Source: a virus
Lineage: Duplodnaviria; Caudoviricetes
DNA length: 64,000 bases
Reading direction: 5' to 3' (one strand)
Virus record (IMG/VR): IMGVR_UViG_3300022752_000016
The position numbers were made by a program, and so were the translations under genes. Every line of letters begins with the position of its first letter. Positions within the stretch are counted from its first letter, which is position 1. Below, one piece after another: positions 10,158 to 37,600 of the stretch. The notes under the pieces were generated by a model. That model made no database searches and had not been told where the DNA came from. It saw only the letters and a program-made list of their open reading frames with translations.

Positions 10158-10162
10158 CCCGA

Positions 10163-13799: not shown

Positions 13800-14278
13800 A
13801 TACACAAGACAGAATAGATTTATTTATACATAAGGAATACAAAAAAGACCTTATAAATTGTTCAATTATAAAAGAAGGTCGTAGTATTTTACTATTTAAT
13901 AGGTATAAAATTTCACCTACTAATATAGGTTACAAAGTTGATATGTTAAGATCGTCAAGTAATATTACTTTTTTTGATATAAAAAATGCACTTACCTATT
14001 GTATATTTGAAAATTATCAAAATTATTCCGAAGCTAATCATGTAGTAAATTTGGATAGAATAATTAATAATTACGAATTTAATGTTAAGCTACAACAAAA
14101 AATGATTAATAATAAAATTTCTAAAGACCAAAAAACTATTCATTTATCTAAACTTTTAGAGAATTTATCAAAGAAAAAACAGGCAAAAGAACAAATGGAT
14201 AAATTAATAAATATATCAAGAACTTTGCTACTCAATAAATTTAATTCTAGTTTAAAAAGCAAAGATTTTGATAAATAG
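13793..14278 (+). CDS. Hypothetical protein
   Basis: Clean 161-aa ORF overlapping the upstream stop. Confidence 0.65.
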   Translation: MLNTQDRIDLFIHKEYKKDLINCSIIKEGRSILLFNRYKISPTNIGYKVDMLRSSSNITFFDIKNALTYCIFENYQNYSEANHVVNLDRIINNYEFNVKLQQKMINNKISKDQKTIHLSKLLENLSKKKQAKEQMDKLINISRTLLLNKFNSSLKSKDFDK

Positions 14279-19300: not shown

Positions 19301-21335
19301 TGCTCTTTCAGGTACAGGGTTAACAATTCATAGCCCTGCAAATGTAGCACAGACTACTAATTTAGCTGGCTCATATACTATTGGAGGCACAACACCCACA
19401 GTTACAACCATATCAGGCAATAATACAATTACATTTAATGCTACTCATGGACTATCAGTAAATGACGGAATCGTATTTACCAATACCTTTAACGGAATAG
19501 TAGGCGGAGAAGGGTATTGGGTGTCAAATATACCATCTGCTACACAAATTACAATAAAAAATGCATTTTTTGGTTCAGAAATTACAACATTAACAAATGC
19601 TACTGGATTAACTCAACCGGCTAGAGCCAATCCAGGCGTAGGTGCTACTTTAACTAATTCAGGACCTAATGCAGCTTTAGTAATAGATGGTATTACCTTA
19701 AGCGCCTCACAAAGAGTTTTACTTGTAGGGCAAACAACTGGTGGACAAAACGGTGTTTATGTTGTAACTAACCCTGGAAATGTAAGTGCAGCATGGGTTC
19801 TTACACGCTCTTCTGATATGAATAAGTATATACCAGGATCCGCATCTGGAATCGGCGCTGGAGATTATTTATTTGTTACACAAGGCTTAAATAATGCTGG
19901 TACAAGTTGGGTTTTATCGAATCCAACAGGTGAAATTATAATCGGTACTACAGCCATATCATTTAGTCAATTCAGTTCCGCAGGAGCCTATACAGCAGGA
20001 AATGGTATCACAATTACTGGCACTGTAATTACTGCTAATACAGATGGGGTTACGACTTCTATTGTTGGGGGTAATATAGTTGTTAAAACAAGTGCAAATT
20101 TGACCACACCAAATATTGGAGCAGCGTCAGGTACAAGTTTAACCGTATCAGGAAATATCACTGCTAATAATTTAAGCATAGGTAATTTAGCAAACATAGG
20201 CGGCAACATTACTACAGGTGGAAATTTATTTGCTAATTATAATATTCAGGCAAATGGAAATATTACAGCAAACAATGCTAATATTACTAACATATGTATT
20301 GCAAATATTTTCCAAGGAACATTTGCTAATGGAAATAGTTATATTTCTATTCCGACTGCCGGCGGTAGTATTGTTATGTATGTTAATGGTAATTCTAATG
20401 TAAGATTAAGTACTAATACATTAGGGGTAAATGTAAACCCAACCTTAACATTAGAAGGCGGTACTACAGCTTTGGGTTGGGGAAATGCTGGAATAGGTTT
20501 TAAAGTCTTAGCTGCTACATATACTGCAAATGGATATACTGGTAATAGTGTACAGAGCGAAAATCATATTCACGCTATTGCACAACCAACTATTGCCTCA
20601 AGCAATAGTAATGTAACTATTCAAAATTCATCAACATTTTATATTGCAGATAGACCTGCTGCAGGGACAAATATTACAATAGGCAATGCATATGCTTTGT
20701 ATGTTGCACAAGGTAATTCATATTTTGGTGGAAATTTAACTACTATAGGAAATATTACAGCAGGTAATTTTGTTGGAGCAGGTAATGGAGCACCTGCTAT
20801 TACAAGTAATAATACTTTAACTATTTCTGCTTCAAATGCACTTACAATTATTGGCAATAGCCTTGCATTAAGTAATGTAAATTCAATAAGTGCTGGGGCA
20901 AACACATCAAATTGCACATTAACTGGTAATTTTATATTGAGTGCAGGATCAAGGTTACAAGCTACTTATGCGGACTTAGCAGAATTTTATGAATCAGATT
21001 TTTTCTATGAACCTGGCACAGTGCTTGAATTTGGTGGTGACAAAGAGGTAACGATTGCGAAAAATGAAACCAACAAAGTTGCAGGAGTTGTAACCTCAAA
21101 TCCTGCATACATTATGAATGCAAATTGTTTAGGTATTGCTGTAGCAGTTGCACTACAAGGTAGAGTACCAGTTAAAGTAGAAGGAAATATCATAAAAGGA
21201 GATTTAATGGTTTCAAGTGGTAATGGATACGCTAAAGCATCATCAAGTCCTATTATAGGATCTGTATTAGGAAAAGCTCTTCAAAATTTTAAAGGAGCGA
21301 AAGGTATTATTGAAATAGCTATAGGAAGATTATAA
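16368..21335 (+). CDS. Long tail fibre / virion protein with Mtd-N-like N-terminus and C-terminal peptidase G2-type intramolecular chaperone
   Basis: IQQRTG...LPQLDEAEFGW N-terminus, Gly/Asn beta repeats, C-terminal ADLAEFY...PGTV...GVVTSNPAY...VALQGRVPVKV. Confidence 0.75.
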   Translation: MAIIQISKIQQRTGNLIDLPQLDEAEFGWASDEKKLFIGKTTPNENIEILTSYSTVNFDAIAGSYGNLNINPNTVGNGQILTFNGVNWVNRGGNAGGIINLGDVANLKILGGGIGYILETDGTGNLSWTPKGTLIAFIENATPSKVPLNQTVATTSYASNGNILIANTSGYLQDTPIVFTGTGFGNISTNTLYYVNSVSSGDSTIKITDVLGGSAISLTDANGNLGLNIVGTIVTTVANNFFTQGTEITVTDAAGMVQLNGNTFFIDVITANTFALYTNPALTDPVYSNNYNSYAYTSVTATDSATSTITVGNSSEFTLNAPVMFKGDLGNSDLIDGETYYVNNIVSGTEIKVSSFLFPNGIAGNTFPVDTDLTIFNSIVFQQGGRIISSIGGSTSTQASGSNTTIQFNNNNILDGDPDFTFDFGTTPKLVTLNGNANVGNLVANGIVSGTQLISNIPTLSGPPLIVTSTLRVSNLNVNYANVSDFSNVVSETTGNTYLILANNSTSGNYQLRSNSNLSFNVSTGNLIASILTATGNINGNNLIISNQSTTGNLIVTGNLSSNNWAANGIAFRTTPQTYTDSNTPGNAILSSTHISALSASNIDTANGNVTISNAATLYIAGAPSNASTNLTITNTYALMINSGNVLIAGNANIGNILTNVANITTINSGLLQNGNSNVTIAANGNITLNANGGARIIATSTGANVSGTLAVSGNANTANLGTTNLFANNLSLSGTSNGNINVATIANSLGFRIIPSTYTDNLSAPSSNVNVAAIHAIGRPTVTASNTAITANNLATFYIENAPNASTNMAITSPWALYIANGNSFFGQGIMFGDGSGIGNVRTISFGTSNVRVYQNANVEVSINGISNLATFFSTGFKVAGTIETTNGNIQANGNIIANGNISGGNAFFTGNANAALVGTAQITSPTGNLTISASGSNQSIFLVPSGTGTVDVAGKRLSQIGSVINPNDATNKEYVDALSGTGLTIHSPANVAQTTNLAGSYTIGGTTPTVTTISGNNTITFNATHGLSVNDGIVFTNTFNGIVGGEGYWVSNIPSATQITIKNAFFGSEITTLTNATGLTQPARANPGVGATLTNSGPNAALVIDGITLSASQRVLLVGQTTGGQNGVYVVTNPGNVSAAWVLTRSSDMNKYIPGSASGIGAGDYLFVTQGLNNAGTSWVLSNPTGEIIIGTTAISFSQFSSAGAYTAGNGITITGTVITANTDGVTTSIVGGNIVVKTSANLTTPNIGAASGTSLTVSGNITANNLSIGNLANIGGNITTGGNLFANYNIQANGNITANNANITNICIANIFQGTFANGNSYISIPTAGGSIVMYVNGNSNVRLSTNTLGVNVNPTLTLEGGTTALGWGNAGIGFKVLAATYTANGYTGNSVQSENHIHAIAQPTIASSNSNVTIQNSSTFYIADRPAAGTNITIGNAYALYVAQGNSYFGGNLTTIGNITAGNFVGAGNGAPAITSNNTLTISASNALTIIGNSLALSNVNSISAGANTSNCTLTGNFILSAGSRLQATYADLAEFYESDFFYEPGTVLEFGGDKEVTIAKNETNKVAGVVTSNPAYIMNANCLGIAVAVALQGRVPVKVEGNIIKGDLMVSSGNGYAKASSSPIIGSVLGKALQNFKGAKGIIEIAIGRL

Positions 21336-23344
21336 TGCTGGAGAAAAAATATTATGTTATTGGCACTACTAATGAGCAAGCATGGGATTACGTTCATAGC
21401 GTATTGACTGAAGATGGAAGTTTAGACGATAATATTCCAACTAGAAAAATTGAATGCACAGATTTAATTGAACACAGTCCTACAAGATCAGTTTATTTAA
21501 TGACAGATGAAGAGGCTAAAAAATTAAGCAAACATCCTAATATTATATTTGTACATATAAATCCAGAAAATCATCCAGAATTATTTCCAACAAATGTGGC
21601 AGATGATTTACATTGTAATACAGAAAGTTATAGATATGATAATTCAGTAAAAAATTATATGAATTTTGCTAATAGTCTTCCTGCAACTCCTACTTCAACA
21701 GATCTGAATAGAACAGGATATCAATTATTACGTCCTGCACAGTTTCAAAATCCATGGCAAGATTATGCTACAACTACAATTATAATGAGCAGGATTCCAA
21801 ATTCATTTACAGGTCGTAATGTAGATTTAGTAGTGGGAGATGATGGTTGTTGGATAGGTCACGTTGAATTTCAAAGTAATCCTATTGCCACTGATGGGAC
21901 TACTATACCTAAGCCTAGAGATTATTTACCTGGTAATGTTTTAAATAGAAATGCTACTTGCAATATCTTAGATATGGTTCTTGATGGTCCATATTATATT
22001 GATCCTAACTATTTTAATCAATCCCCATCAACAAGACTTATTACAAGATGGGACGGAACATTAGTACCTGAAGAAAATACCGCACGAAATTGGTGGGGGT
22101 TCGGATCTAATAGATCACCACAATTCGCTAACATAGGTACAGTGTCTATTCCTTCAAGTTATACTCGACTTAATACCGGTGGGTCAAATATTGCTATGCC
22201 AGCTGGGAGTGACGGAACGCATGGTACTCCTTGTGCAGGACTGTCATATGGTAGGACAATGGGGATAGCGTATAATGCAAACAAATGGTTTATCGATGCA
22301 TATGGATTGTACTCATTTTGGCCTAGTATAGACAGATATTTTAATATAATGAAAATTTTTCATTTGAACAAACCAATAAATCCTTTATATGGAACTAGAG
22401 ATCCTACTGTTTCTAGTAATAGTTGGGGATTCAGAGCAACATTGTCTGTAACGTCAGGTCAATATTTTTTTCGACAAGGAACATCAGGAACAGGTGGAGT
22501 ATTTTATAATAGTACGTCTATACCTGCCTTTATTCAAAATTTAGGAACTCAAGGCGATGCTAATCGGTTTAAAGGTGAAATGGCTCCGAATACTTTTACA
22601 ACTGCAGGAGATGAATTAATTAATAGTGGTGTTATATTTGTTGTAGCAGCAGGGAATAGTAATCAACAACAGGTAGGATCTGATCATCCAAATTATGATA
22701 ATTACTATTCCTTTGGTCCTAATCCATTAGTAAGCTCAACACACACAGAATTTAACGTAACTTGTTATAATACCACAAGTAGGCGTGGTTTTCCACAACA
22801 ATTAGGAAAAAGAATAGAAAATGGACAAGTAGTATATCCAGCAATTAATATTGGGGCACTAGATGATAATTATTCGTTAAATGGACAAGAACAAAAAGTT
22901 AATTATAGCGACATGGGAACAGAAATTGATATGTATTTGCCTGCGGATGGTACACTAACCCCAAACGCTAAGTACACTCCTCAATATTTGAGATATGATA
23001 AGTTAAATAATGGTATGGCTAATTATTATGATTGCCGTTTTTCTGGGACAAGTGCTGCCTGTCCTGTAGCTGCAGGTTTAATTGCTGCTATGATGGAAAA
23101 TAATCGTTCATGGACTTGGAAAGAAGTACGTGATTGGATAAGATCATTACAATTACAACCAAGTTCTACCTTTTATATAGGACCTAATCCAAACACAGCC
23201 ACTACTAATGAATGGTTTGATTATAATAGTTTACGAGGCGGACCAAGTCGTGTTGGTTATATAACTGCTAGTGTCACGCCCTCATCTATTGGCATTTCGG
23301 GAAGTTTAAACATCTCTGGTGATGGATTAAAAATTAATTTTTAA
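21335..23344 (+). CDS. Subtilisin-like S8 peptidase 1
   Basis: Triad DLVVGDDG / HGTPCAG / SGTSAACP, oxyanion AAGNS, N-terminal prodomain. Confidence 0.85.
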   Translation: MLEKKYYVIGTTNEQAWDYVHSVLTEDGSLDDNIPTRKIECTDLIEHSPTRSVYLMTDEEAKKLSKHPNIIFVHINPENHPELFPTNVADDLHCNTESYRYDNSVKNYMNFANSLPATPTSTDLNRTGYQLLRPAQFQNPWQDYATTTIIMSRIPNSFTGRNVDLVVGDDGCWIGHVEFQSNPIATDGTTIPKPRDYLPGNVLNRNATCNILDMVLDGPYYIDPNYFNQSPSTRLITRWDGTLVPEENTARNWWGFGSNRSPQFANIGTVSIPSSYTRLNTGGSNIAMPAGSDGTHGTPCAGLSYGRTMGIAYNANKWFIDAYGLYSFWPSIDRYFNIMKIFHLNKPINPLYGTRDPTVSSNSWGFRATLSVTSGQYFFRQGTSGTGGVFYNSTSIPAFIQNLGTQGDANRFKGEMAPNTFTTAGDELINSGVIFVVAAGNSNQQQVGSDHPNYDNYYSFGPNPLVSSTHTEFNVTCYNTTSRRGFPQQLGKRIENGQVVYPAINIGALDDNYSLNGQEQKVNYSDMGTEIDMYLPADGTLTPNAKYTPQYLRYDKLNNGMANYYDCRFSGTSAACPVAAGLIAAMMENNRSWTWKEVRDWIRSLQLQPSSTFYIGPNPNTATTNEWFDYNSLRGGPSRVGYITASVTPSSIGISGSLNISGDGLKINF

Positions 23345-23640: not shown

Positions 23641-26166
23641 ATGTCAGAAAAAAAGATATATCAAATTTGCTGTCATACTGAACAAGATTGGGACTTTATA
23701 CATGAGGTTTTGACAAAAGATGGCACATTAGAAGATAATATACCAACTAGGGCAGTTGAACTAGTTGATTACAAAGAACATAGTTCTACTAGATCCACTT
23801 ATCTTTTAAGCGATGACGAAGCCCAAGAACTTCAAAAAAATTCAAGAATAAAGTTTGTAAATATTGACTACGCAAGTTATCCTGAGTATAAACCGCCTAA
23901 AGATGAATTACACGCAGCTTTTTATAGATATCCCACTGATATTAAATGTTATAGAAATTTTTCAAATCCAAATATTATGCCAACAGATTTTACTGAGGCC
24001 GACAACAATCGTAGCGGATATCAATTATTACGTGTTACTCAAAAATTAGATCCATGGTATGGTGCAAGTAGTCAAACTGTTCTTGTAAATCGAATTGATA
24101 TGTCTGGTACAGGAAAAGATGTAGATGTGATTGTAGGCGATGAGGGTTGTGCTTTTGGGCATTGTGAATTTCAAACAAATACAGGATCAGGCCCAACCAG
24201 TTTAATTGGCGGTAATCCTCTTTCAACAACAGGTACGTGTATGTTGTTAGATTTAGTGCTTGAGGGTCCATATTACATTGATCCTGCTTATTTTAATGCA
24301 GAACCCTTATCCAGATTAACAACTAGATGGGACGGTACAACAGTTCCTGTCGAAACTGTAGCAAGAAATTGGTGGGGCAATAGTGCAGCTAGATCAAGTC
24401 AATTTAGTTCAATAGGTACTGTTACTATAACTTCATCTTATACTAGGGACAATTGTAACGGTGATAATCAATATTTTCCAAACGAAGGAGATCATGGTAC
24501 GTGTTGTGCAGCACTAACATATGGCAGAACACAAGGTTGGGCTTACAATGCTAATAAATGGTTCATTGATGCATATGGTTCTTACGGTGTTGGTTTAGAG
24601 CAATATTTTGACATTATGAAAATATTTCATTTAAATAAACCTATTAATTCAAAATATGGTACACGTAATCCTACTATTTCAAGTAACAGTTGGGGATATC
24701 GTGCTACATTGCCTATTTCAAGTGGTGCTTATTATTTTAGACAAGGTACTACTGGATCAGGCGGGGTGTCTTTTACAAGTAGTACTAAGCCTGAATTTAT
24801 GAAATATTTAGGAACAACAGGAGATGCTAATAGGTTCAAAGGTGAAATGTTAGATAATAGTTATACTGAAGCAGGCAATGAACTTATTGCATCAGGTGTA
24901 ATTTTTATAGCAGCAGCAGGGAATAGTAATCAACAACAGGTAGGATCTGATCAACCAGATTATAATAATTATTGGGCAACTGGTTTAAATGTAGCCCTTG
25001 CTAATGCAACACATTCAGAATTTGGATTAACATGTTATAATACTACAAGTAGACGTGGTTTCCCACAACAATTAGGTAAATATTTTGAGAATGGACAAGT
25101 AGTGTATCCAGCAATTAATATTGGTGCATTGGATGATCAATACATGTCTGATGGAAAAGAACGAAAAGTTAACTATAGTGATATGGGAAATCAAATTGAT
25201 GTTTATGCTCCAGCAGATGGTACAATGGCTGCAAATAGGAATTACAGTCCACAATATTTAAGACCTGACAGCTATCCAGGATCGGGGGTGCCAGAAGGAT
25301 TCGTTGGACTGTGTAATGCAGTTGCGTATTTAAATGGTACGTCAAGTTTTGATCCAGAACCAAATACAGGTTGGAGGTTAGTCACTAGTAATCAATCATC
25401 TGCGACATTGACTCCTATTCCCAGTGATTTAAAAGGAACTACAGGTTTAAGTTTATTATCACTGACAGGTGGAGACAATGATGATGGATATTATGGAGTT
25501 AATATATCAGGTGGCGGAGGATTTACAATTACCTTTGCAGGTACAACTTTTGGTAATGTCTACATAAACACCAATAGTTTAGTTACTTTTACAAGTGCAT
25601 ATATTCAACTTGTGTTTAATGTATCTACTCCAAATATGCGTAAAATTTGTATAAATGCAGACGATAATAGTTGCCAAAGATGTTGGGGTGGATTTGAAGG
25701 AACTGCTCCTAATAGAAGAATAAGATTTAGATATGAAGGTACTAATGATATAAGCGGAGTAGTTGGTAGTCCAAATATGGTTTGGGAATTAACCTTATAC
25801 GAAAATGCTAGAAACCAATTTGATATACAAATAGGTGTTAATGCTAGACAAACTTCACTATTTTATGATGCAGCATTTGGAGGCACTAGTGCTGCATGTC
25901 CTGTTGCTACTGGTTTTATTGCAACTGTTTTACAATATAATAGGAATTGGACTTGGAAAGAAGTGCGACAATATTTACAAAATTTAGAAGTACAAGATAC
26001 GACAAGGTTCTACCAAGGACCTACACCTGAAACTGCAAATAGTGTTTCTTGGGCAGATTTAAATAGTTTAATGGGGGGAGATAGACGAGTATTATATAAT
26101 AAGACAGATTATGTAAATATGTCAGGGAACAATTTGTCAATTACAGGAAGTAATTTTAGCTCCTAA
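23641..26166 (+). CDS. Subtilisin-like S8 peptidase 2 with inserted beta domain
   Basis: DVIVGDEG / HGTCCAA / GGTSAACP and AAGNS; ~200 extra residues before the catalytic Ser relative to paralogue 1. Confidence 0.85.
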   Translation: MSEKKIYQICCHTEQDWDFIHEVLTKDGTLEDNIPTRAVELVDYKEHSSTRSTYLLSDDEAQELQKNSRIKFVNIDYASYPEYKPPKDELHAAFYRYPTDIKCYRNFSNPNIMPTDFTEADNNRSGYQLLRVTQKLDPWYGASSQTVLVNRIDMSGTGKDVDVIVGDEGCAFGHCEFQTNTGSGPTSLIGGNPLSTTGTCMLLDLVLEGPYYIDPAYFNAEPLSRLTTRWDGTTVPVETVARNWWGNSAARSSQFSSIGTVTITSSYTRDNCNGDNQYFPNEGDHGTCCAALTYGRTQGWAYNANKWFIDAYGSYGVGLEQYFDIMKIFHLNKPINSKYGTRNPTISSNSWGYRATLPISSGAYYFRQGTTGSGGVSFTSSTKPEFMKYLGTTGDANRFKGEMLDNSYTEAGNELIASGVIFIAAAGNSNQQQVGSDQPDYNNYWATGLNVALANATHSEFGLTCYNTTSRRGFPQQLGKYFENGQVVYPAINIGALDDQYMSDGKERKVNYSDMGNQIDVYAPADGTMAANRNYSPQYLRPDSYPGSGVPEGFVGLCNAVAYLNGTSSFDPEPNTGWRLVTSNQSSATLTPIPSDLKGTTGLSLLSLTGGDNDDGYYGVNISGGGGFTITFAGTTFGNVYINTNSLVTFTSAYIQLVFNVSTPNMRKICINADDNSCQRCWGGFEGTAPNRRIRFRYEGTNDISGVVGSPNMVWELTLYENARNQFDIQIGVNARQTSLFYDAAFGGTSAACPVATGFIATVLQYNRNWTWKEVRQYLQNLEVQDTTRFYQGPTPETANSVSWADLNSLMGGDRRVLYNKTDYVNMSGNNLSITGSNFSS

Positions 26167-26182
26167 AAAATCTAAAAAATTA

Positions 26183-26256
26183 ATAAATACTTTATCATTT
26201 TATGATTTATGCGGTTCCCGCCGCGTAGTGGAATAGAACCCACATATTATAAGGAG
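26183..26256 (+). promoter_or_regulatory. Late promoter plus structured 5' leader (three hairpins)
   Basis: ATAAATA 26183-89; stems at 26194-206, 26208-27 and 26228-43; SD AAGGAG. Confidence 0.7.
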
Positions 26257-26263
26257 AAAACAA

Positions 26264-27493
26264 ATGGGCCGCCCTTTAAAAATTGCCAAAGCGCAAGCAA
26301 TTCTAACAATTACAGATACTACAGCAGCAACAGATTATGTAACAGTTAGTCAAAGTTTAACAAATTTAGGTGTAATTGCTGGTATGCCTTTTGTTACTGC
26401 AAGTTCAACAGGTGGATTAACAGCAGGTACAACATATTACATTTTGCAAGTAATTAATGCTAACAATTTTACAGTATCAGCAACTCAACTCAGTGCTAAT
26501 CCAACTTATGCTGTAGTTGCATTAAGTGATACATCAGGTACTACAGTAAGTGCAACAGTAGGTGTTGTTGATAGTGGATTTAACAATCCAGAAGGCACAG
26601 CAAATACATATGGCGTAGTTGGTGGTAATACTGCTATTATTGGAAAACAAGTTTTATGCCGTGTTGCGATAGGTGTAACTGGGACTGGCAATATATATAC
26701 TTCAAATGCAAGTGATATTGTAGTAGGACAAGGTACTGATTTTGGTAATGTAGCAGATTTAGCAGCAGGATCAGCAATTCAAGTTATTAACAGTCAAACA
26801 GGTGCTGTAACAAATATTGGATTTGTAAATGCTGTTGCAGCTATTACAGAGGCAGTAACTGATACAGTGGCTACAGGATCTTTTGTTGTAACAAGTGGTA
26901 ATGCTCAAAACTTTCTGCCAAATGCACCATTAACATTTGATGCAAACATTGGTGGTTTAACAACAGGCACAACATATTACATTAAAACAGTTGCAAACGC
27001 TACACACTTTACAGTTTCTACAACACAAGGTGGTGTAGCAGTTGCAGTTACAAATGATACTGATACAGCTAATGCAACACAAGATGCGTTTACATTAACT
27101 GCTAATTCCGTTGTTTCTACAAGTAATAGTGCATGGATTTACGCAAATGATGAAGCAGGGTTTATTGTTCGTCAAAAAGGTAAACAAAAATATCTAGTAA
27201 CAGGTGCTACAAGTGGTTTGACAGCACAATGTTACACAGCAAATTTGGCAAACACAGCATTAATACCTAACTCAATGAGTATACTTGCTACATATGCTAA
27301 TACAACAACTCAGCGTGTTCAAAGCTTAAGTGATATTAATTCTGAATTGTTTACAGCAACATCAGGACCAATTGCAACAGGTAATATTGTACTAGCAAAT
27401 GCGACTCCAGTATATGGAACATTTAACAGTGCAGTAGCAGCTAACACAGCAAATGGTTTAATTTACCCATTAGTACAAATTGCATCAGCATAA
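26264..27493 (+). CDS. Virion structural protein (MGRPLK-type N-terminus)
   Basis: Thr/Ala/Gly/Val-rich with two GGLxxGTTYYI modules; strong expression signals. Confidence 0.65.
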   Translation: MGRPLKIAKAQAILTITDTTAATDYVTVSQSLTNLGVIAGMPFVTASSTGGLTAGTTYYILQVINANNFTVSATQLSANPTYAVVALSDTSGTTVSATVGVVDSGFNNPEGTANTYGVVGGNTAIIGKQVLCRVAIGVTGTGNIYTSNASDIVVGQGTDFGNVADLAAGSAIQVINSQTGAVTNIGFVNAVAAITEAVTDTVATGSFVVTSGNAQNFLPNAPLTFDANIGGLTTGTTYYIKTVANATHFTVSTTQGGVAVAVTNDTDTANATQDAFTLTANSVVSTSNSAWIYANDEAGFIVRQKGKQKYLVTGATSGLTAQCYTANLANTALIPNSMSILATYANTTTQRVQSLSDINSELFTATSGPIATGNIVLANATPVYGTFNSAVAANTANGLIYPLVQIASA

Positions 27494-27497
27494 TATC

Positions 27498-27803
27498 ATG
27501 GCACAACCATTACAAGTTCATACAGAAACCGAGGTAGCTATCCTTCAAGTTCAATATAAAAATCTTGATGAAAAAGTCGATGATTTAAAAGTTGAAGTTA
27601 AAGATATGCGTGTATCTTTAGAAAGGCATTCCAAAGAACACACGGAAATGATGAAGTCTATGGAAGTTTCAGCATCCAATGCACATTCTGAGTTAAGTAA
27701 GAAAATTTCAGCTTTAGAAAAATGGCGTTGGATGTTAATGGGTGCAGGTGTAGTTATCGGAGCTTTAGGTTGGCCTACAATAGGTAAATTATTAGGTAAC
27801 TGA
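27498..27803 (+). CDS. Coiled-coil protein with C-terminal TM helix (XhlA/holin-like)
   Basis: Heptad region followed by KWRWMLMGAGVVIGALGW; ATG at 27498 preferred. Confidence 0.55.
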   Translation: MAQPLQVHTETEVAILQVQYKNLDEKVDDLKVEVKDMRVSLERHSKEHTEMMKSMEVSASNAHSELSKKISALEKWRWMLMGAGVVIGALGWPTIGKLLGN

Positions 27804-28217
27804 TAAAGTTGAGGGAATGTTTCCCTCAACTAATTTTAATTTTTCTTGTACTAATTCAAAATTAATTGTAGAAAATAAACCAGGATGTAGGGGTTTGGGA
27901 TATTGATCTTTCATTACCCAAGCATATCCACAATGTTCATTGTTTAAAATAGGAATAAATTCTATTCCTACATCACAAAAAAATGTATGATAAACAAAAG
28001 TTTTATTAACAAATTTTTGAATAGGAATTAATTTATATAAGGTTATATCGAAATTTATTTCTTCTAAACATTCTCTTTTTAAACCAGTAAACAGTGTTTC
28101 ATTTTTTTCAATTTTGCCACCTGGAATACCCCAAGACGCATTTTTGTCTGTTCTTAATAAAAAAAGATATCGATTTGTTGATTTACTGTAAAAAAAAATA
28201 CCTGCTGAATTACTCAT
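27792..28217 (-). CDS. NUDIX hydrolase
   Basis: Nudix box GGKIEKNETLFTGLKRECLEEINF. Confidence 0.9.
   Translation of the reverse strand: MSNSAGIFFYSKSTNRYLFLLRTDKNASWGIPGGKIEKNETLFTGLKRECLEEINFDITLYKLIPIQKFVNKTFVYHTFFCDVGIEFIPILNNEHCGYAWVMKDQYPKPLHPGLFSTINFELVQEKLKLVEGNIPSTLSVT
27807..27831. terminator. Hairpin at a convergent junction, probable bidirectional terminator
   Basis: AGTTGAGGGAA-TGT-TTCCCTCAACT, 11-bp stem. Confidence 0.7.
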
Positions 28218-34481: not shown

Positions 34482-34541
34482 TGTATTATTTATAAAAAAA
34501 CCTTCGAAGGCATAATGTAAGTGCTTTTTTTAACCTTTTAG

Positions 34542-34581
34542 CTAAATAATATTATGCGGTTAAGGTCGTAAACCTCATAAT
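34542..34581 (+). promoter_or_regulatory. Late promoter CTAAATA plus structured leader of the sheath gene
   Basis: CTAAATA 34542-48; ATTATG/CATAAT outer stem containing TTATGCGGTT. Confidence 0.6.
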
Positions 34582-34601
34582 TTTACATAAAGGAAAAAGC
34601 A

Positions 34602-37600
34602 ATGGCACTATTATCACCAGGTGTAGAAGTAACTATTATTGATGAATCTCAGTACGCTCCTGCTTCTGCAGGAACAATACCTTTCTTTTTAATTGCAACA
34701 GCGCAGAACAAAGCACAACCTAATGGTGTAACTGTAGCCTCTGCAACAACTTTAGCTAATGCTAACAAGTTATATGCTGTTACAAGTCAACGTGACCTTG
34801 TAACATTGTATGGAACACCATTTTTCTATACAACAGTAGCAGGAACTCCTATACAGGGTTATGAACTTAATGAATACGGATTATTAGCAGCCTATTCTGC
34901 TTTGGGACTATGTAATAGAATTTATGTTTTAAGAGCAGATGTTAATTTGGCAAGTTTGATAGGACAGGCAGGGAGACCATCAGGAGCTCCTACAGATGGA
35001 TCATATTGGTTAAATACTACCTCAACCACATGGGGAATTTATGAATGGAATGCTACGACAGGTAAATTTACGCAAAAAACTCCTATTGTCATAGTAGATA
35101 GTGATAATCTTATTGGTGGATACCCCTCACCAACTTTGGGAAGCGTAGGAAGTTATGCAGTAAATGCTATTCCATCTGTGCCAAATAATACACCCTCTTT
35201 AACGCCTGTTCAATGGTTTTATAAAAATTCTTCAAATATTTGGACAGCTATTGGAGCATCAGACTGGGCTAATAGTTGGCCAATCGTTCAAGGAACGGCT
35301 ACGTTACCTACATTTACGAATGGAGATTCAATTACTATAAATCTAAATAATAAGTTTAGTAAAACATTTACAGCAGGAGCTTCTCCTAATAACAATATTC
35401 AATGGCTTACAACACAAATTAATAATTTAGGACTATCAAGCTTGATTGCAAATAGTATTAATGGAAAATTTGTATTATATTCAGCCCAAATTGAAAGTAC
35501 TAACAAAAACAGTTTCGTAGGGATTACAGGCACAGGAACGTTTTTGGCAGATTTAGGAGTATCAACAGGAAATTATTTTGTTCCAACTATATTTGCAGGC
35601 CCAAGTTCAAAACAACCATTATGGGCATCCAGTCAGACCACACCAAGACCTACAGGATCTGTATGGTTAAAAACAAGTAGCTCAGGAAACGGCTTTACTC
35701 CAGAATTTTATAGATATAATGCAATAACAAGAAGTTGGGAACCTAAAATTGTAAATTCAGTAACAAGTTTTCAAAATGCGACAGAGACATTAGCTGCAGG
35801 TGGTTTAGCGAGTGGTATTCCACAAGGTACCATTGCTTCTATATATAATTTTGTTTCTGTCCCAAATAATTATCAAACTTATAACTCTCCGTACTTTTTT
35901 ATTGAAAGATCAACTACAGGAGCAACAATTGTAACAGGATCTGTCTCAAATCCAAGTTTTACTACAGGCCCGTACGAAATAACTGTTGTGCCAACAGATG
36001 AAAATAATCAATACAGTGCATCTTACACAATTAATTTAGCAGATAATACTTTTGCAGAAGATTTTGTTGATGCATGGGTAGCAGCCGCTATTCCATATAC
36101 AACTGCCTCGGTTGACACAACAGGAAATATTGTAATCACACACACATTAGGAGGTGATATATTACTTAATGATATATTTACCACTGGTCCAAGTGTAGGA
36201 AATTCTAGTGGGTTTTTGAGTATAGCAGGATTTATACCTCAATCTACAGAATATGTTAGTTTAGGTTCGCTATATCCACAAGAATTTGTAGTTACTCAAT
36301 CTACAACTTCTGGAGTAGGCATTGACCTCTCTCTAACTATTTCAACTATGAACGGTACATATCTTTTAGGACCACAGGGTGATAATCCTTATTTAATTTC
36401 TTCGGGTTCAGGATATGCAGTTAATGATACGATTACATTTAATGGTTCGAAATTTGGTGGTTCAGTAGGTAATAATTTAATACTAAAAGTTATTAGCGTA
36501 GGTATTGGAGGATCTGTTACTGGGCTTGGGATAGTATCAGGCACAGCTCCTGCTTCTTATAACACAATTTTAAGCAATTGGGTTTTTGCAACATATGAAG
36601 CAAATGAAGGAGCTCCTGTAGCTAATCCAAGTGATGGAACTAATTGGTATTACAGTGTAGAGGACCAAGTCGATATAATGGTAAATTACAACGGAGCTTG
36701 GAAAGGATATAAAAATCAAAATTATGATATAAATGGTTTTCCAACACCATCAGGGTCAAATAGTACAGACCCAAATGGTCCAATTATTTCAGCCAGTGAA
36801 CCAACTGTACAAACCGATGGTACTCCTTTAGTATATGGAGATATATGGATAGATACTAGTGATTTAGAAAATTATCCTATTATAAGTAGATATCAGTTAG
36901 TGGATAGTGAGGATAAATGGGTATTAATTGATAATACTGATCAAACAAGTGGATCAGGAGTTTTATTTGCAGATGCTAGATGGGCAACAAATGGAACAAC
37001 AAATCCAGTAAATGATCCATTACCCACTATTAAAAGTTTGTTAACTAGTAATTATTTGGATTTAGACGCTCCCAGTAGCGAATCTTATCCTGTTGGTATG
37101 TTGTTATTTAATACTAGACGTTCTGGTTTTAACGTAAAACAATTTAAAGTAAATTATTTTAATAATACACGCTTCCCAGATCAAATATTACCAACACAAA
37201 AAGATGCATGGGTTACTATAAGTGGAAATCAAACCAATGGTGCTGCTTATATGGGTAGAAAAGCACAACGTGCAGTAGTTGTTCAATCTTTAAGGAGCGC
37301 TATTGATACAAACTTTGATGTTAGAGATGAAAGTTTCCCATTTACTTTGATGGCCACTCCTAACTACCCAGAATTACAACAAAACATGATTGTACTAAAT
37401 GCCGATAGAGGAGATACAGCCTTTATAGTAGGTGATACTCCAATGAGATTAAGTGATAGTGCAACTGCAATTTCAAGTTGGGCAATCAACTTAGCAGGAG
37501 CATCATCAACAGGTGAAGACGGTTTGGTTAATAGAAGCACTTACATGGGCTTATTTTATCCAAGTGGTTTAGCACCTGACTTTGAAGGTAATTTAGTTGC

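Follow-up and report, generated by a model that had tools for sequence, protein, structure and literature searches.

A new copy of the orphan freshwater-2 RNA in the long late leader of an uncultured T4-like giant myophage, with a possible pairing between an RNA loop and the start codon

The locus and its genomic setting

The window, that is, the whole 64,000-nucleotide stretch of viral DNA analysed in this work (IMG/VR virus record IMGVR_UViG_3300022752_000016), belongs to an uncultured T4-like giant myophage. Among the proteins encoded in it are one helicase similar to UvsW and another similar to DnaB, a sheath stabiliser of the T4 gp15 type, a tail sheath protein of 1199 aa, two tube proteins, a head-tail adaptor, and a collagen-like fibre of 1865 aa. 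The 409-aa protein considered below is on record on a 205-kb contig, and its relatives are found on contigs as long as 370 kb. Among cultured phages, the helicase is closest to those of jumbo phages, for example, Sinorhizobium phage Phosso and Agrobacterium phage Atu_ph07 (50 to 55% identity).

The gene of the 409-aa protein starts at ATG 26264 and is preceded by a gap that begins at the stop codon (26166) of an upstream 841-aa gene. The features of the gap and of the gene that follows it are listed here, with positions of the window.

26182 to 26189, + strand: late-promoter-like motif AATAAATA of the T4 type; ATAAATA stands at the same alignment position in most of 67 leaders
26194 to 26206, + strand: hairpin P1, with arms ATCAT (26194-26198) and ATGAT (26202-26206) and loop TTT; weak in the window copy
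26208 to 26227, + strand: hairpin P2, with arms TATGCGG (26208-26214) and CCGCGTA (26221-26227) and loop TTCCCG; 7 bp, including one U.G pair (T26210 with G26225)
26217 to 26220, + strand: CCCG of the P2 loop, proposed as the 5' side of a pseudoknot stem
26228 to 26243, + strand: hairpin P3, with arms GTGG (26228-26231) and CCAC (26240-26243) and loop AATAGAAC; no spacer after P2
26244 to 26263, + strand: AU-rich linker (7 nt, the distance from the end of P3 to the SD), SD AAGGAG (26251-26256), and A-rich spacer AAAACAA (26257-26263)
26264 to 27493, + strand: gene of the 409-aa protein, starting MGRPLKIAKAQ; T26265 to G26268 are proposed as the 3' side of that stem
27807 to 27831, + strand: terminator-like hairpin with a T-run, directly after a small ORF (27480-27803)

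A single T separates P1 from P2. The hairpins had been noticed in an earlier sequence-only reading of this DNA, and each string quoted there was recovered at its place; the leader also lies where that reading had put it, right after a late promoter and before the SD, since it adjoins both the T4-type late-promoter-like motif and the SD. The hairpin at 27807-27831 probably ends the transcription unit.

The T4 late-promoter consensus is TATAAATA. In the window, RATAAATA or CTAAATA was found 25 to 36 nt before at least seven other ORF starts of the + strand. The distance is 25 to 26 nt for the ORFs starting at 10162, 32650, 41318, 44387, and 53229, and it is 30 and 36 nt for those starting at 14270 and 16332, respectively. 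The total number of RATAAATA copies is not above chance (20 versus 26 expected), and 17 of the 20 are on the gene strand. This set of candidate motifs fits T4-type late promoters with short leaders. At the gene of the 409-aa protein, the distance between motif and ATG is 82 nt, as opposed to 25 to 36 nt at most other late-type leaders, and it is this exceptional leader that is filled by the RNA described below.

Two further observations concern the flanking genes. Just upstream, within the region of virion genes, lie two large proteins in tandem (21335-23344 and 23641-26166, + strand) that contain a Peptidase_S8 (subtilase) domain and both correspond to phrog_9158. Downstream, the ORF at 27480-27803 (+ strand), which starts with TTG and overlaps the 409-aa gene at its end, encodes a coiled-coil-like protein of 107 aa; its match to DUF1515 (22.9 bits) is barely over the family cut-off of 22.2. 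This ORF may be co-transcribed with the gene of the 409-aa protein.

Identity of the leader RNA

A scan of the whole 64-kb window against Rfam 15 identified RF02980, freshwater-2 RNA, at 26193-26266 of the + strand. The match has a score of 58.3 bits, compared to a gathering score of 49.9, with an E-value of 2.7e-6, and covers positions 1 to 84 of the 84 model positions. It was the sole Rfam match above the gathering score in the whole window. For the region 26100-26350, no Rfam family besides freshwater-2 was found at E <= 1, riboswitch classes included, and ARAGORN detected no tRNA or tmRNA in the window. In the alignment to the consensus, the three hairpins, the strings UAUGCGG/CCGCGUAG and UAGAAC, and the tail AAGGAGAAAACAAAUG were all matched. 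The freshwater-2 strings UAUGCNG/CNGCGUAG and the loop UAGAAC are present within 26194-26243, where P2 and P3 abut. The 3' end of the model falls on ATG 26264-26266, and both the SD and the AUG are inside the model.

With hardly any room for doubt, the element is a member of the freshwater-2 family, RF02980. The window copy is structurally the same as the family, being a full-length match with the same three hairpins and the same tail, and it differs by an unusually short P1 composed of AU pairs only, by a P3 loop of 8 nt (AAUAGAAC), and by a score at the low end of the family. The sequence-only reading had not recognised a named Rfam family and had proposed a search with Infernal against Rfam; the Rfam scan above supplied the name. 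The RNA family is therefore already catalogued, and the window holds a new copy of a known orphan family. RF02980 is typed Cis-reg in Rfam. Its structure line is without a pseudoknot, and the pairing of loop and start codon discussed below is an addition from the present analysis.

To our knowledge, freshwater-2 is an orphan motif to which no organism, gene function, or mechanism has been attached. The family is described as occurring only in environmental, mainly freshwater, sequence and is not known from classified organisms. The family reportedly originates from the 224-motif comparative screen of Weinberg et al. in 2017. A full-text literature search with the name 'freshwater-2' returned no relevant paper, and the main text of the motif-screen paper (PMC5737381) does not mention it. 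No freshwater-2 match above the cut-off was detected in five related cultured jumbo phages. Likewise, neither the protein nor the leader DNA was matched in 50,697 GenBank phage records, and the GTDB representative genomes contained no match for the protein. The element was thus found in no cultured phage of the collections searched.

Folding of the window sequence and conservation of the hairpins

In the window sequence, the predicted folding energy is -9.7 kcal/mol for P2 (z = -3.15) and -3.6 kcal/mol for P3 (z = -3.46), and P1 is marginal in this copy (-0.3 kcal/mol). The 50-nt core at 26194-26243 folds with -14.9 kcal/mol (z = -2.97), and none of 200 shuffled sequences folded equally well. 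The fold of the whole 104-nt gap is unexceptional (z = -1.31), so that the case for structure rests on comparison. The minimum-free-energy fold of the window also contains an outer stem of UCAUUUUAUGAU with AUAUUAUAAGGAGA, which replaces P1 and covers part of the SD. This stem was not taken as a family feature, because it depends on the AU-only P1 of the window and has no counterpart in L001, the leader of a close relative, or in other clades.

For the comparison, relatives were chosen by the similarity of the downstream protein only, and not by their RNA, which provided 7 IMG/VR loci and 80 metagenome loci at 49 to 83% amino-acid identity. RF02980 was identified directly before the gene in all six IMG/VR loci with upstream sequence (6/6). 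A covariance model built from the collected leaders, termed R1, found the element before the gene, in the same placement, in 83 of the 83 loci having upstream sequence, with no second copy in the 1.5- to 3-kb flanks of these loci. The window also has one copy only, and the next best R1 match in it, located before the sheath gene, has only 19.5 bits (E = 0.12). The leader of the tail sheath gene (34541-34607, + strand) is itself longer, with CTAAATA 60 nt before the ATG, and contains a hairpin AUUAUG..CAUAAU (-7.0 kcal/mol, z = -2.45) that starts with UUAUGCGG, the same string as in the 5' arm of P2.

The covariation test was done on a structure-blind MAFFT alignment of 64 distinct leaders. In this alignment, 91.4% of the cells pair and two-sided changes are present in 13 of the 17 base pairs, values that were reached by none of 500 shuffles; when the registers were shifted by 1 to 3 columns, pairing was 30 to 54%. 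The corresponding values for the model-fitted alignment, which is biased towards the structure, are 96.8% and 16 of 17. P1 has 6 bp and more G+C in the relatives, and all six of its pairs show two-sided changes, its sequence varying freely with pairing kept. In P2, one pair switches from A-U to G-C in 25 of the 64 leaders, and the U.G pair is retained in 55. P3 pairs in 100% of the cells, with two-sided changes in 4/4 pairs. Outside the stems, the core TAGAAC of the P3 loop is near-invariant, with invariant alignment columns T61, A64, A65, and C66, and so is the spacer before the start codon (A85, A86, C88, and A89 to A91) across the family; the other late-type leaders of the window have unrelated spacers. 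The covariation of P1, P2, and P3 indicates that these three hairpins are a real RNA structure. The sequence-only reading had proposed collecting the leaders of homologues and had taken a lack of conservation or covariation as an argument against its inference; the leaders proved both conserved and covarying.

Candidate pairings of the P2 loop and the initiation region

The sequence-only reading had also seen pseudoknot potential in the leader and had paired GGTTC (26213-26217) with GAACC (26236-26240) as a loop-loop or alternative interaction. The two strings are complementary in the window, and this pairing was rejected because its 5 bp can form in only 1 of the 64 distinct leaders. It requires U26216, a column in which every other leader has A or C; L001, for which the protein is 97% identical, reads GGUCC. 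In addition, G26213 and G26214 are already used by the covarying P2 stem. Three other candidates were also discarded. The UAGAA of the P3 loop is complementary to UUCUA in codons 13 and 14 (26301-26305), but the CTA leucine codon needed for this match is present only in the window, L001, and L063, most relatives having GTC TTA, and the match was rejected as chance. A role of the 5' arm of P1 as an anti-SD, or of its 3' arm (GGAGAG) as an SD mimic, can be drawn for some clades only and is absent from that of the window. Finally, the third positions of a GGACGUCC palindrome over codons 2 to 4 are without covariation.

A different partner emerged for the P2 loop. In the window, C26217, C26218, and C26219 can pair with G26268, G26267, and G26266, respectively, and G26220 can form a wobble with U26265. 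Among the 64 leaders, 94.5% of the cells pair between the CCC[A/G] of the loop and the UGGG at 26265-26268. The only changes are one-sided and keep the pairing, with G.U replacing A-U in 19 leaders and U.G replacing C-G in 7. The UGGG strand is invariant because it encodes Met-Gly, so that the gene family of the window alone cannot prove the pairing; it contains no two-sided change at these positions, and the covariation between loop and start codon comes, therefore, from paralogues.

These paralogues were collected by IMG/VR scans in which only the 3' arm of P2 and P3 were fixed and both the loop and the gene were left free. A total of 84 distinct combinations of P2 and initiation region were compared, 14 with AUG-GCA and 70 with AUG-GGN. 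The AUG-GCA paralogues carry a C instead of a G at +5. The loops found with each start are given below.

Loop CCC[A/G]: 0/14 with AUG-GCA, 49/70 with AUG-GGN (Fisher p = 7e-7)
Loop GCC: 6/14 with AUG-GCA, 1/70 with AUG-GGN (Fisher p = 4.7e-5)
Exact complement GCC[A/G]: 4/14 with AUG-GCA, 0/70 with AUG-GGN (Fisher p = 5e-4)

When GCC was counted by N-terminal lineage groups, a crude grouping that is the only control for phylogeny in these Fisher tests, the values were 6/9 versus 1/26 (p = 3e-4). According to BLAST among the proteins, compensated cases occur in at least four separate protein lineages, as follows.

L214, a Met-Ala member of the MxRPLKIAKAQ family of the window, with loop UAAGCCA
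L237
the L226 group
the L122/L210 group
L209

Two AUG-GCA lineages are uncompensated, namely, MARSLNK, with loop UCCA, and most of MARALKIQK, including one loop without any CC. L042 is also without a CCC loop. When the best duplex partner of the loop was searched from the end of P3 to +9, it covered the AUG in 71 of the 84 leaders. The 4-bp stem is weak: the duplex of loop and initiation region in the window has -4.5 kcal/mol, which is matched by 34% of the shuffles of the window's own loop, and U26215.G26220 can extend P2 there, competing for G26220. Taking this evidence together, the P2 loop probably pairs with the start codon. The geometry, with 1 to 3 nt before the CCC and 0 to 1 nt between the stems, would fit an H-type knot with coaxially stacked stems. 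Of the pseudoknot foreseen by the sequence-only reading, the existence seems to stand and the partner does not, since the 94.5% pairing involves the start codon and not the P3 loop. Its wider proposal of a cis-regulatory leader holds in so far as a conserved, structured 5' leader RNA precedes a gene in a virion neighbourhood; it needed amending as to the named Rfam family and the pseudoknot partner.

In a clade with a different P2 (L025, L026, L048, L049, and L071), a CCCAU in the linker and AUGGG make up an ordinary hairpin, and the AUG is predicted to be unpaired with a probability of 0.03 to 0.08. It was also observed that in L025, L026, L028, L048, L049, L059, L060, and L071, P2 is replaced by another AU-rich stem with CUCAU in the loop. 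In its CUCAU, this loop resembles the anticodon loop of the initiator tRNA, and the linker of these leaders likewise has a CCCAU able to pair with AUGGG.

The downstream protein and its superfamily

More than 1,900 homologues of the 409-aa protein are on record, each annotated as 'hypothetical', and the protein matched no Pfam or PHROG family. Its AlphaFold model is all-beta, with a mean pLDDT of 66.6. A Foldseek search of this model against the PDB returned nothing at E <= 0.001, BFVD provided only low-TM matches to uncharacterised fibre-like phage proteins, and the ESM Atlas only unnamed viral clusters. VIA-align picked out two small beta-barrels that are similar to each other (residues 10-102 and 192-273); these predicted barrels resemble inserts in phage tail and fibre proteins at Z <= 7.8, a likeness that is not decisive. 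There is also an internal repeat at residues of about 33-72 and 215-252 (..GGLTAGTTY..FTVSAT..), which matches the two predicted barrels. Paralogues have weak PHROG matches to fibre, head-closure, and baseplate domains.

The predicted all-beta model is unlike an HK97 capsid protein, and none of these searches confirmed a capsid identity. The sequence-only reading had described the product as an abundant virion protein; neither the lack of a Pfam or PHROG family nor the shape of the model lends support to this description; the gene neighbourhood and the strong SD make it plausible.

The leader precedes not a single family but a gene superfamily of 117 to 470 aa (IMG/VR loci L088 to L246), with N-termini of the types MGRP[L/I/V]K/N..., MGNAL..., and MAR[P/A/S/L].... 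The synonymous sites of codons 3 to 7 vary freely, which argues that the MGRPLKI peptide is conserved as protein and not as RNA.

Discussion

The evidence leans slightly towards a mechanism in which a short H-type pseudoknot of the leader hides the start codon and thereby brakes or gates the translation of a late gene. The freshwater-2 RNA would make up nearly all of the 5' untranslated region of a late mRNA. The probable transcription start is a few bases downstream of AATAAATA, which would place P1, P2, and P3 at the extreme 5' end of the transcript, with P2 and P3 stacked end to end. The CCCG of the P2 loop (26217-26220) would then pair with UGGG (26265-26268), that is, with the U and G of the start codon and the first two bases of the glycine codon, to give the H-type pseudoknot, and the SD and the A-rich spacer would be in its long connecting strand. 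The 30S subunit would dock on the strong SD, and the 4-bp stem would have to open before the start codon could be used, so that the knot may act as a brake or gate on initiation for a family of virion-type proteins. The invariant UAGAAC of the P3 loop and the U.G pair of P2 are likely contacts for a putative factor that sets the balance, and the 5' hairpins probably protect the message too. A more specific version, in which a factor encoded by the phage or the host recognises the invariant P3 loop together with the U.G pair of P2 and so opens or locks the knot, such that this start-codon-masking operator times or doses the MGRP-type virion superfamily, can be offered only tentatively. We know of no post-transcriptional control of late structural genes that has been described for T4-like phages.

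Several other explanations have been weighed against this mechanism. The hairpins might serve only as a 5' stabiliser that shields a long-lived late message from 5'-end-dependent decay, the match between loop and start codon being functionless. Only a few bases probably separate the likely transcription start from the hairpins, and P1 is free in sequence with its pairing kept, as expected of a purely structural cap. A stabiliser would, however, leave the invariant P3 loop, the conserved P2 sequence with its U.G wobble, and the conserved spacer unexplained, together with the switch of the P2 loop from C to G in step with +5, and other late-type genes of the same phage do without such a leader; this explanation is considered rather improbable. 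Much the same low probability is given to an operator without a pseudoknot, at which a phage or host protein would recognise P2 and P3 (the UAGAAC loop, the U.G wobble, and a CCA-like loop) and repress or activate translation. T4 gp43, gp32, and RegA and the coat proteins of RNA phages act on translational operators. Invariant loop and junction nucleotides beside freely covarying stems are typical of protein-binding sites, and the presence of one leader on many paralogous genes would suit a shared trans-acting factor, but a protein operator on its own does not predict that the P2 loop tracks the identity of +5. Such an operator is compatible with the start-codon pseudoknot and may be part of it.

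A small-molecule riboswitch, in the form of a compact pseudoknot aptamer of the preQ1 or SAM-II type that senses a host metabolite, appears very unlikely. It would agree with the small size, the conserved unpaired nucleotides, an H-type knot that may form with a 3' strand rich in A, and the Cis-reg type in Rfam; against it, no riboswitch family matched even at E <= 1, the genes are late virion-type genes with no metabolic link, and apart from its 4 bp, the putative knot offers no evident pocket for a ligand. Lastly, a kiss between the GGUUC of P2 and the GAACC of the P3 loop, whether as a loop-loop pseudoknot or as a switch to an alternative fold, can hardly be correct: its 5-nt complementarity is present in the window, and its occurrence in a single distinct leader refutes it as a family feature. 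The favoured reading remains the masking of the start codon by the P2 loop.

In T4, RNA structures at the 5' ends of messages are well known to control initiation, and the translational operators of this phage include the gene 32 pseudoknot, the gp43 hairpin operator, and the RegA sites. The phage of the window has a structural module of the T4 type and a candidate late motif similar to TATAAATA; in contrast, T4-type late leaders are short, and no T4 operator shares the freshwater-2 fold. The nearest mechanistic analogue is the leader of Escherichia coli rpsO, encoding S15, which, as set out in one study (PMC3985624), folds into hairpins or into a pseudoknot involving the ribosome-binding region, the pseudoknot being the regulatory form. 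What rpsO has in common with the mechanism proposed here is a pseudoknot that involves the initiation region, and it is an analogue, not a relative. Whereas the rpsO gene product binds its own knot and represses translation, freshwater-2 precedes diverse paralogous products, and there is no sequence or Rfam relationship between the two.

As a discovery, this work is modest, since the family was already known. It sets a copy of freshwater-2 in a defined context, namely, before a conserved virion-type gene in a giant freshwater myophage (about 205 kb), where this leader is the one long member of the T4-type late set. What is added here is the setting of the family, with its giant T4-like phage, late leader, and MGRP superfamily, and the covariation between loop and start codon. 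The 4-bp pseudoknot over the start codon is a concrete hypothesis that is testable by mutation. If it is true, giant aquatic phages would regulate some of their late structural proteins at translation initiation, and freshwater-2 would receive a functional annotation in Rfam.
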